A stretch of DNA of 41,232 bases from IMG/VR virus record IMGVR_UViG_2877263951_000005, one strand, 5' to 3'. A program made the translations under genes and the position numbers. Origin of the DNA: a virus (Duplodnaviria > Heunggongvirae > Uroviricota > Caudoviricetes). Positions 10,895-11,205 of the stretch are shown piece after piece (the first letter of the stretch is position 1; every line of letters starts with the position of its first letter). The notes under the pieces are model-generated. The model had not been told where the DNA came from and did not search any database. It worked only from the letters and a program-made list of their open reading frames with translations.

Positions 10895-10971
10895 GGCCCT
10901 TTAGCTCAGTTGGTCAGAGCGAGCGACTCATAATCGCCAGGTCGCTGGTTCAAGTCCAGCAAGGGCCACCA
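10895..10971 (+). tRNA. tRNA-Ile2-like (anticodon CAU, lysidine type; could be scored as Met)
   Basis: Cloverleaf with acceptor GGCCCTT/AAGGGCC, anticodon loop CTCATAA, 3' CCA; anticodon and T arms match E. coli ileX as I remember it. Confidence 0.8.
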
Positions 10972-10972
10972 A

Positions 10973-11049
10973 CCACCACTAGCTCATCCGGATAGAGCAT
11001 CAACCTTCTAAGTTGACGGTGCGAGGTTCGAGTCCTCGGTGGTGGGCCA
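10973..11049 (+). tRNA. tRNA-Arg (anticodon UCU)
   Basis: Acceptor CCACCAC/GTGGTGG, anticodon stem TCAAC/GTTGA, loop CTTCTAA, 3' GCCA. Confidence 0.8.
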
Positions 11050-11051
11050 GC

Positions 11052-11127
11052 GCCGACTTAGCTCAGCAGGCAGAGCAACTGACTTGTAATCAGTAGGTCA
11101 CCAGTTCGATTCCGGTAGTCGGCACCA
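11052..11127 (+). tRNA. tRNA-Thr (anticodon UGU)
   Basis: Acceptor GCCGACT/AGTCGGC, anticodon loop CTTGTAA, T-loop TTCGATT, 3' ACCA; close to E. coli thrU. Confidence 0.8.
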
Positions 11128-11130
11128 TAT

Positions 11131-11205
11131 GCGGGCATCGTATAATGGCTATTACCTCAGCCTTCCAAGCTGATGATGCGGGTTCGATTCCCGCTGCCCG
11201 CTCCA
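11131..11205 (+). tRNA. tRNA-Gly (anticodon UCC)
   Basis: Acceptor GCGGGCA/TGCCCGC, anticodon loop CTTCCAA, 3' TCCA; close to E. coli glyT. Confidence 0.8.

Follow-up and report, generated by a model that had tools for sequence, protein, structure and literature searches.

Four tRNA genes beside an integrase

The window analysed here, the whole 41,232-nucleotide (nt) stretch of virus record IMGVR_UViG_2877263951_000005, carries four clustered transfer RNA (tRNA) genes and, directly behind them, the remnant of an integrative island with an intact integrase gene. An identical locus is present in chromosome GCA_002949255.1, and the exact integrase protein appears in the database as a site-specific integrase of Shigella flexneri. 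Over the entire window ARAGORN finds exactly four tRNA genes, spanning 10895–11205, at coordinates identical to those of an earlier note, which had read them from the letters alone as clustered Ile2, Arg, Thr and Gly tRNAs decoding NNA codons. Rfam RF00005 scores the four at 56–70 bits (gathering score 29; E-values 1e-9 to 1e-13), and with both tools every gene forms a cloverleaf. The intergenic spacers are 1, 2 and 3 nt long and CCA is encoded in each gene. Because their anticodons begin with U34 or with the precursor of lysidine (k2C), all four are predicted to read A-ending codons.

The first gene (10895–10971, +) has the anticodon CAU, predicted to be read as k2C-AU and to decode AUA. It matches ileX of Escherichia coli K-12 in 69 of 77 aligned columns and carries the pairs C4–G69 and C5–G68. 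The copy in the related prophage of E. coli VL40, which shows no differences from the window within this tRNA, is called tRNA-Ile by the PGAP annotation, and the homologues in Shiga toxin (Stx) phages, ~88–90% identical, are named ileZ. On these grounds the gene is assigned to Ile2, a predicted TilS substrate, and not to Met. The second gene (10973–11049, +; anticodon UCU) is a tRNA-Arg for AGA and, weakly, AGG. Only 58 of 79 aligned columns match argU, and an alignment with argN, argO and argU shows clear homology to argN of Stx phages. The third, tRNA-Thr (11052–11127, +; UGU; ACA/ACG), is a near-copy of host thrU (74/76 identical to the K-12 gene), and the fourth, tRNA-Gly (11131–11205, +; UCC; GGA/GGG), equals host glyT (75/75 in K-12) and forms the left attachment site (attL) of the island.

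The cluster in intact prophages

VL40 carries the same cluster in an intact prophage that adjoins yecD–aspS and matches the window at 97–99% over 1153–8818, 93.5% over 10177–11205 and 99.6% over 10700–11205. Its gene order runs Q, ant, tRNA-Ile-Arg-Thr-Gly, holin, lysozyme, Rz, terminase, head, tail, tail fibre and ipaHd. The arrangement Q-(ant)-tRNAs-holin-lysozyme recurs, each time with no integrase, in VL40, phage 689R5 and E. coli CFSAN029787; the placement between Q and the lysis genes is thus seen through relatives, the window's own downstream part being deleted. A sigma-70-like promoter, TTTGCA-18-TATTAT, lies 9 nt 5′ of tRNA-Ile2 (10856–10885, +; promoter scan, function predicted), and its TTGCA and TATTAT hexamers are kept in VL40, 689R5 and phage Stx2a_F349; expression of the tRNAs is suggested by these conserved hexamers only. 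The shared gene order and hexamers assign the four genes to a lambdoid prophage as its tRNA operon.

The region upstream, which the note had taken for a late module, is in fact the early-right/nin/Q/ant region, with the lambdoid nin-region genes DUF1367 and YbcO, a Q-type antiterminator, isrK/C4 RNAs and a split ORF6N ant; the late genes due after the tRNAs are missing. The parallel drawn there with the Q–tRNA–stx regions of Stx phages holds. Stx2a_F349 has the order Q-ileZ-argN-argO-stx2AB, its ileZ–argN pair is ~88% identical to the first two window tRNAs, and window 10880–11049 matches ileZ–argN of many Stx phages at 85–90%. As in the ileZ-argN-argO set of 933W-type Stx phages, the cluster follows the late antiterminator, precedes late/lysis genes and uses the same promoter hexamers. 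Unlike in Stx phages, the second tRNA reads AGA (UCU), while Stx argN (UCG) reads CGA/CGG; copies of thrU and glyT replace argO; and, as the note had seen, no stx genes follow, an island with an intact 534-residue recombinase standing there instead, so that in this respect the locus is not of the Stx type. Phage tRNA clusters after Q have long been known, and this one is already annotated by PGAP in E. coli.

A glyU-type island downstream

The 2.8-kb island remnant (11206–13989, +) comprises a left end, the integrase gene (int), repeat arrays and a truncated rha; it is recognised by its match to an island at glyU in E. coli and is cut by the insertion sequence (IS) IS1. Its int gene (11320–12924, +) starts 115 nt past the CCA of tRNA-Gly and encodes a tyrosine recombinase of 534 amino acids (aa) with a DUF6538 N terminus and a Phage_integrase domain (Pfam PF00589, 1.2e-17; PHROG 1, 1.5e-45). 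The open reading frame (ORF) is intact, and the R...HxxR...H...Y residues are readable in its translation (ARLNE, HSFRH, GHSS, TYDRY).

In the E. coli island (locus L001) the order is actS-glyU-int, with the island directly 3′ of chromosomal glyU. Its integrase is 95% identical to that of the window, and window 11162–13369 matches the island at ~94%, the match beginning 44 nt inside tRNA-Gly. Across 20 species-representative genomes of Enterobacterales, integrase relatives (65–87% aa identity) lie 100–200 nt downstream of tRNA-Gly(CCC) in 15 and behind a partial tRNA 3′ fragment, as typical of tandem arrays, in 4 more. Complete islands are 5.5–7.3 kb long, and at their far end the 3′ part of the tRNA is repeated (L001 16365–16387; L034 9327–9343). 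Judged from these positions, the normal target of the island is the 3′ end of chromosomal glyU, tRNA-Gly(CCC). This gene is a known island site, with the glyU-adjacent ETT2 region in E. coli (PMC2808357) and gly1A islands catalogued in Klebsiella (bioRxiv 10.1101/2020.11.02.365908). We rejected the integrase as the prophage's own, since its family sits at glyU with 5–7 kb islands across genera.

A different reading would make the tRNAs cargo of the integrase island, supporting AGA/AGG/AUA-rich genes such as the integrase itself. The integrase, 115 nt from the cluster, is indeed very rich in these codons, as the earlier note had remarked (AGG 24, AGA 13 and ATA 15 per 1000 codons). Compared with a reference of 6125 codons from host core genes, its use of ACA and GGA is below the host sample, a difference that is not statistically significant. 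The 95% identical homologue resident at glyU has no tRNA cluster nearby and shows the same AGA/AGG/AUA bias. With an equal bias in that homologue and few ACA and GGA codons in the integrase, the bias gives no evidence of a functional link, and we rejected a codon-supply connection between the integrase and the tRNAs. Moreover, the cluster occurs without any island in the VL40, 689R5 and CFSAN029787 prophages, the integrase family occurs at glyU without the cluster in 15 species, and the 3′ end of tRNA-Gly marks a step in sequence divergence. Comparison with the empty site and with the glyU sites already refutes the cargo reading, and we give it practically no weight.

The island junction at the phage tRNA-Gly

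A three-way alignment places the junction precisely. The window follows the phage up to the last base of CCA, at 11205, and from 11206 is ~94% identical to the E. coli glyU island. The VL40 prophage provides the empty site: it is 99.6% identical up to CCA and then runs on to the holin gene. The occupied site is complete in E. coli EPSSH018 (L014), where a lambdoid prophage with tRNA-Ile-Lys-Thr-Gly is followed by int (74% aa identical), a 6.4-kb island and a right attachment site (attR), TTCGGCTCCCGCTGCCCGCTCCA (L014 18658–18680), after which the prophage resumes with the sequence found behind tRNA-Gly in 689R5 and then the holin gene. The EPSSH018 island thus stands between the tRNAs and the holin gene, with most of its genes on the late-operon strand, and the window shares its left junction. 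Island variants also stand behind this four-tRNA cluster in two viral contigs, L044 (integrase 96% identical) and L041 (73%). Between L041 and the window, 4 of 1629 nt differ upstream of the attachment site and 18 of 89 nt downstream.

Two integrase subtypes are represented at both kinds of site. Subtype A occupies the phage tRNA in the window and L044 and glyU in L001; subtype B occupies the phage tRNA in L041 and L014 and glyU in L030 and L031, the L041 integrase being 99% identical to that of L030. A comparison of junctions at 27 loci defines the identity block in common with glyU (11181–11205, +), made up of the T-loop GGTTCGATTCCC and the 3′ end GCCCGCTCCA: phage tRNA-Gly(UCC) and glyU share the T-loop and the last 10 nt. 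The identity of GGTTCGATTCCC and GCCCGCTCCA between glyU and the glyT-type tRNA would account for the use of the phage gene as a target. A second tRNA-Gly 3′ end was not found in the window (25-mer and 17-mer, up to 3 mismatches), leaving attL alone, because IS1 cuts the island at 13990. The junction is rare, with one case in 5426 complete E. coli genomes and none in 50,697 phage records. Taken together, the empty site, the occupied site with both attachment ends and the divergence step lend good support to tRNA-Gly as the site at which the downstream island integrated, as the earlier note had suspected. In a limited literature search, a glyU-type integrase family that repeatedly uses a tRNA-Gly gene carried by a prophage seems undescribed.

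The occupied phage sites differ at 11193–11195. The window has GCT there, the phage/glyT type, whereas the three other sites (EPSSH018, L041 and L044) have TTC, the glyU/island type. In these three, the last 13 nt of the phage tRNA-Gly are replaced by the glyU-type sequence of the island and GCT is displaced to attR, which would place the crossover in or next to the TCCC of the T-loop. The hybrid tRNA-Gly with TTC has C50–U64 and A7–C66 mismatches and folds 5 kcal/mol worse.

A junction of this kind might also arise by chromosomal rearrangement, either IS-mediated or by homologous recombination between an island-bearing glyU and the prophage tRNA-Gly. IS1 and IS600 copies abound in the S. flexneri chromosome, which is heavily rearranged at the window, attR is lacking here, and the native GCT could stem from recombination in the last 10 nt. 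Against this, the junction is base-precise at CCA with no IS there, and in EPSSH018 the phage site is occupied with both attachment ends and an uninterrupted flank. The phage site has in addition been occupied by two integrase subtypes with four distinct junction types, and the shared homology amounts to just ten nucleotides, which is very short for RecA-dependent exchange. We therefore consider rearrangement very improbable and favour site-specific integration.

Origin of the locus and role of the tRNAs

The most probable account, held with good confidence, combines a phage tRNA operon, a glyU-type island in the phage tRNA-Gly and a later IS1/IS600 deletion that has left a fossil junction. 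According to this account, an S. flexneri lambdoid prophage would carry a tRNA operon after Q/ant and directly 5′ of its lysis genes. The operon would add gene copies of four low-abundance tRNAs reading AUA, AGA, ACA and GGA and so, presumably, boost the translation of rare codons. A small glyU-targeting island would then have entered the 3′ end of the phage tRNA-Gly by site-specific recombination, and later IS1/IS600 activity would have removed the part of the island beyond rha and, with it, the lysis, head and tail genes of the phage (~25 kb). The order of the last two events, integration and then deletion, is the one we infer.

The codon use of phage genes agrees with part of this account. 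Relative to the host reference, the VL40 early genes over-use ATA 3.0-fold, AGA 5.1-fold and AGG 23-fold, and its lysis genes over-use AGA 13-fold. The earlier note held that all four tRNAs serve codons infrequent in E. coli-type hosts and frequent in AT-richer mobile DNA. AUA and AGA/AGG clearly exceed host use in early and lysis genes of the phage; the Thr and Gly tRNAs are not exotic, being near-copies of thrU and glyT.

Several observations count against the favoured account. ACA is enriched just 1.7–1.8-fold in phage genes and GGA 1.3–1.7-fold, the latter significantly in structural genes only. Given this low enrichment, and because both tRNAs duplicate host genes, the rare-codon rationale is a good fit for Ile2 and Arg and a weak one for Thr and Gly. 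With the prophage dead, its tRNAs could at present play a role only for the host. The window's tRNA-Gly is fully native (GCT), which one fixed crossover point does not explain. Finally, by its gene content the island could be a satellite, a defence island or a plain integrative element. For the GCT allele, three origins are possible: a 3-nt heterology within the recombinase overlap region, with the heteroduplex segregating to either allele; an attP variant of this island lineage; or later repair by conversion from glyT.

Phage tRNAs are known to make good the damage when anticodon nucleases cleave tRNA-Lys or other tRNAs. The cluster might accordingly act less in codon supplementation than by offering replacement or decoy tRNAs where defence or toxin nucleases cleave tRNA. 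Such a role would suit the Thr and Gly genes, which duplicate host tRNAs and meet weak codon enrichment, and also the second tRNA, whose scaffold bears UCU, UCG or UUU (Lys) across homologous clusters. It is harder to reconcile with a tRNA-Gly identical to glyT, since a nuclease that cuts glyT would cut both, or with the strong AUA and AGA/AGG enrichment in early and lysis genes, which fits the classical explanation; nor is any nuclease linked to the cluster in the window. We regard it as unlikely to be the main role.

A bolder possibility, which we offer tentatively and hold to be doubtful, is that the island family uses the prophage tRNA-Gly as a second home, where it would share the transcription and replication of the induced phage and possibly be packaged along with it. 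It would then be a tRNA-targeting counterpart of helper-embedded satellites with defence cargo such as PD-T7-4, and the GCT and TTC alleles would stem from recombination over 3 heterologous nt of the overlap region. Such recombination could leave the phage tRNA-Gly either intact or crippled. In this setting the island would have the Q-dependent late promoter region on one side and the lysis genes on the other. Should the nested layout be functional in intact relatives such as EPSSH018, the idea of helper-embedded satellites would extend to tRNA targets.

Under the favoured account of integration followed by deletion, a host-derived prophage tRNA gene serves as a landing site for islands whose normal target is a chromosomal paralogue, and mobile elements can nest through a prophage tRNA and, in principle, travel with the phage. 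The outcome in S. flexneri is a fossil: intact tRNAs and a stranded intact integrase in an IS-eroded sitABCD/ipaH prophage region. Its practical value lies mainly in annotation: the integrase is not the prophage's own and the tRNAs are not island cargo.

Comparison with known islands

The window resembles glyU islands in its integrase family (65–87% aa identity across genera, 95% in E. coli) and in the left-end sequence after CCA, and in complete copies of such islands the 3′ end of the tRNA likewise recurs as a short direct repeat. It differs from them in its target, a prophage-borne tRNA-Gly of the UCC isoacceptor, and in being truncated and without attR.

Helper-embedded phage-inducible chromosomal islands (HE-PICIs) lie in the late genes of lambdoid prophages, where they target 14 sites within genes that code for protein, and their integrases belong to a single clade (Tommasini, Mageeney and Williams 2023, PMC10111431). 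Like them, the island is a small integrase element nested in, and co-oriented with, a lambdoid late unit, and it has a regulator of the Rha/Bro-N-network type. Unlike them, its target is a tRNA that mimics the chromosomal site, and satellite behaviour is only a candidate property. The gene set of HE-PICIs (AlpA, a primase/replication zone and captured late genes) was not detected in two complete islands with Pfam and PHROGs.

The pathogenicity island (PAI) sit and the ipaH islands of S. flexneri are reported at aspS–yecN (Fisher et al. 2009, as summarised in PMC7545054). The window similarly has sitABCD and ipaH in IS-riddled prophage remnants, and the position of its VL40 counterpart by yecD–aspS fits the aspS–yecN location. 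In contrast, the descriptions of PAI sit summarised in the portion of PMC7545054 available to us treat sit cargo and its instability, not a tRNA cluster or a nested integrase.

Island gene content

Four adjacent AT-rich short tandem repeat arrays, detected with Tandem Repeats Finder, fill the interval between int and rha (13229–13647). Their units are 10–12 nt, with composite periods of ~23–47 nt and a GC content down to 0.34. They resemble iterons or regulator-binding sites and could possibly bind a regulator or replication protein. A 5′ gene fragment follows (13808–13989, +; ORF translation) at the position of a Rha/Ant-like regulator in the relative; its own similarity to Rha is visible by eye only. 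It retains the first 60 codons and is truncated by IS1 at 13990. The full-length gene in the E. coli island L001 matches PF09669 (7.6e-18) and the anti-repressor family PHROG 10324 (1.7e-49). A perfect 9-nt repeat, CAACAACCA, present in 5.7 copies at 13814–13864, encodes a (QQP)n run at the N terminus of the rha-like ORF.

The EPSSH018 island carries a PD-T7-4 anti-phage defence gene directly 3′ of int (L014 14059–14712; PADLOC E-value 3.4e-97; DUF4145). Searches of the proteins of the two complete islands with Pfam, PADLOC and PHROGs returned only the integrase, the Rha/Ant-like regulator, PD-T7-4/DUF4145 and DUF6971; the remaining proteins matched nothing. Next to subtype-B int, glyU itself appears corrupted in S. 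flexneri SFBU1023 (L031 3805–3880) and in E. coli ECMA0423 (L030), with extra or missing bases; for L031 ARAGORN gives a 4-base anticodon. These are probably assembly indel errors and not biology.

Variation within the cluster

Between 10700 and 11205, VL40 differs from the window at 11093–11094 alone. These two adjacent substitutions (L013 12394–12395) break two anticodon-stem pairs in the tRNA-Thr of VL40, unlike the S. flexneri gene, which retains a thrU-like anticodon stem. The second tRNA of the cluster presents one scaffold with varied anticodons, as compared at window 10973–11049, L002 6095–6171 and L045 3593–3669. It has UCU (Arg) in the window and UCG (argN) in Stx phages, and many prophages of E. 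coli, among them 689R5, APEC O1 and EPSSH018, have UUU (Lys) accompanied by an unusual C33. Anticodon switching in phage tRNAs may be the source of this variety. Several E. coli genomes, VL46 and CFSAN029787 (L047 2921–2991) among them, have a fourth tRNA annotated as tRNA-Val. A clean anticodon switch was rejected for this gene, which has UAC for UCC, A38G, a 1-nt deletion and CCA changed to CAA at its 3′ end; it looks like a decayed copy with an anticodon-loop change and a damaged 3′ end.

Prophage context and decay

Upstream of the cluster, the Q-type late antiterminator (8035–8589, +) matches DUF1133 and Phage_antitermQ (Pfam PF06576, 5e-108; PF06530, 6e-6). The same stretch is called in the identical S. 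flexneri locus L003, and the VL40 orthologue is annotated DUF1133. An isrK/C4 antisense RNA module (8609–8810, +), with Rfam RF01394, RF01695 and RF03163 all above the gathering score, precedes ant. An IS600 copy found by self-BLAST of the window (8913–10176, +) is inserted near the 5′ end of ant and splits it, and VL40 has an uninterrupted ORF6N gene at this place. The 3′ part of ant, an ORF6N anti-repressor gene (10177–10686, +), matches Pfam PF10543 (6.6e-18) and is 96–98% identical to Stx-phage antA. Between ant and the tRNAs stands a strong, terminator-like hairpin followed by a run of U (10783–10813, +). RNA folding of 10770–10815 gives −22 kcal/mol (z = −6.7), and the hairpin is kept in VL40 and 689R5; a simple terminator scan of 10500–11500 listed no terminator despite this fold. 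Also in the nin region is a hok/sok-type toxin–antitoxin (5488–5812), with an Rfam sok match of 118 bits and a 70-aa HOK_GEF ORF.

The window holds four copies each of IS1 and IS600 (IS600 copies 99.7–100% identical; one truncated to 949 bp). Self-BLAST places an IS1 (13990–14758) directly against a truncated IS600 (14759–15707), and we read this unit (13990–15707) as the scar of the deletion. The next phage DNA is a lambdoid tail-fibre end (16988–18381, +), 97.7% identical to the tail-fibre/DUF4376 region of VL40; Caudo_TAP and DUF4376 are matched by Pfam in the ORFs at 16257–16628 and 17788–18411. A second copy of the tail-fibre segment, 97% identical, stands at 35655–36366, for which reason the assignment of 16988–18381 to the same prophage is stated as probable. 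Window segments 1153–11205 and 16988–18381 match opposite ends of the VL40 prophage, with nothing from between present, and BLAST of the VL40 loci found no phage lysis, head or tail genes in the window. Together with the missing attR, this comparison indicates the loss of ~25 kb of late genes from the phage and of the greater part of the island, and it leaves the intact integrase without a partner site.

Other features of the window

Directly past the prophage tail-fibre end lie the sitDCBA iron/manganese ABC transporter genes (18612–22061, −), which correspond to PAI sit of S. flexneri. An ipaH gene with leucine-rich repeats and a NEL E3 ligase domain (36576–38291, −) stands past the second tail-fibre DUF4376 copy and is followed by the small RNA CssrB (38420–38602, +); in the intact prophage of VL40, ipaHd takes the corresponding place. 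A second isrK/C4 module (34416–34604, −), opposite in orientation to that at 8609–8810 (+), adjoins an Ash/Rha gene (34023–34655), which points to a second lambdoid prophage remnant. A 1.1-kb direct repeat (48–1153 and 32713–33817; 99.6% identical) encodes an IS3-family transposase with rve domains, and the same element truncates the integrase in contig L044.

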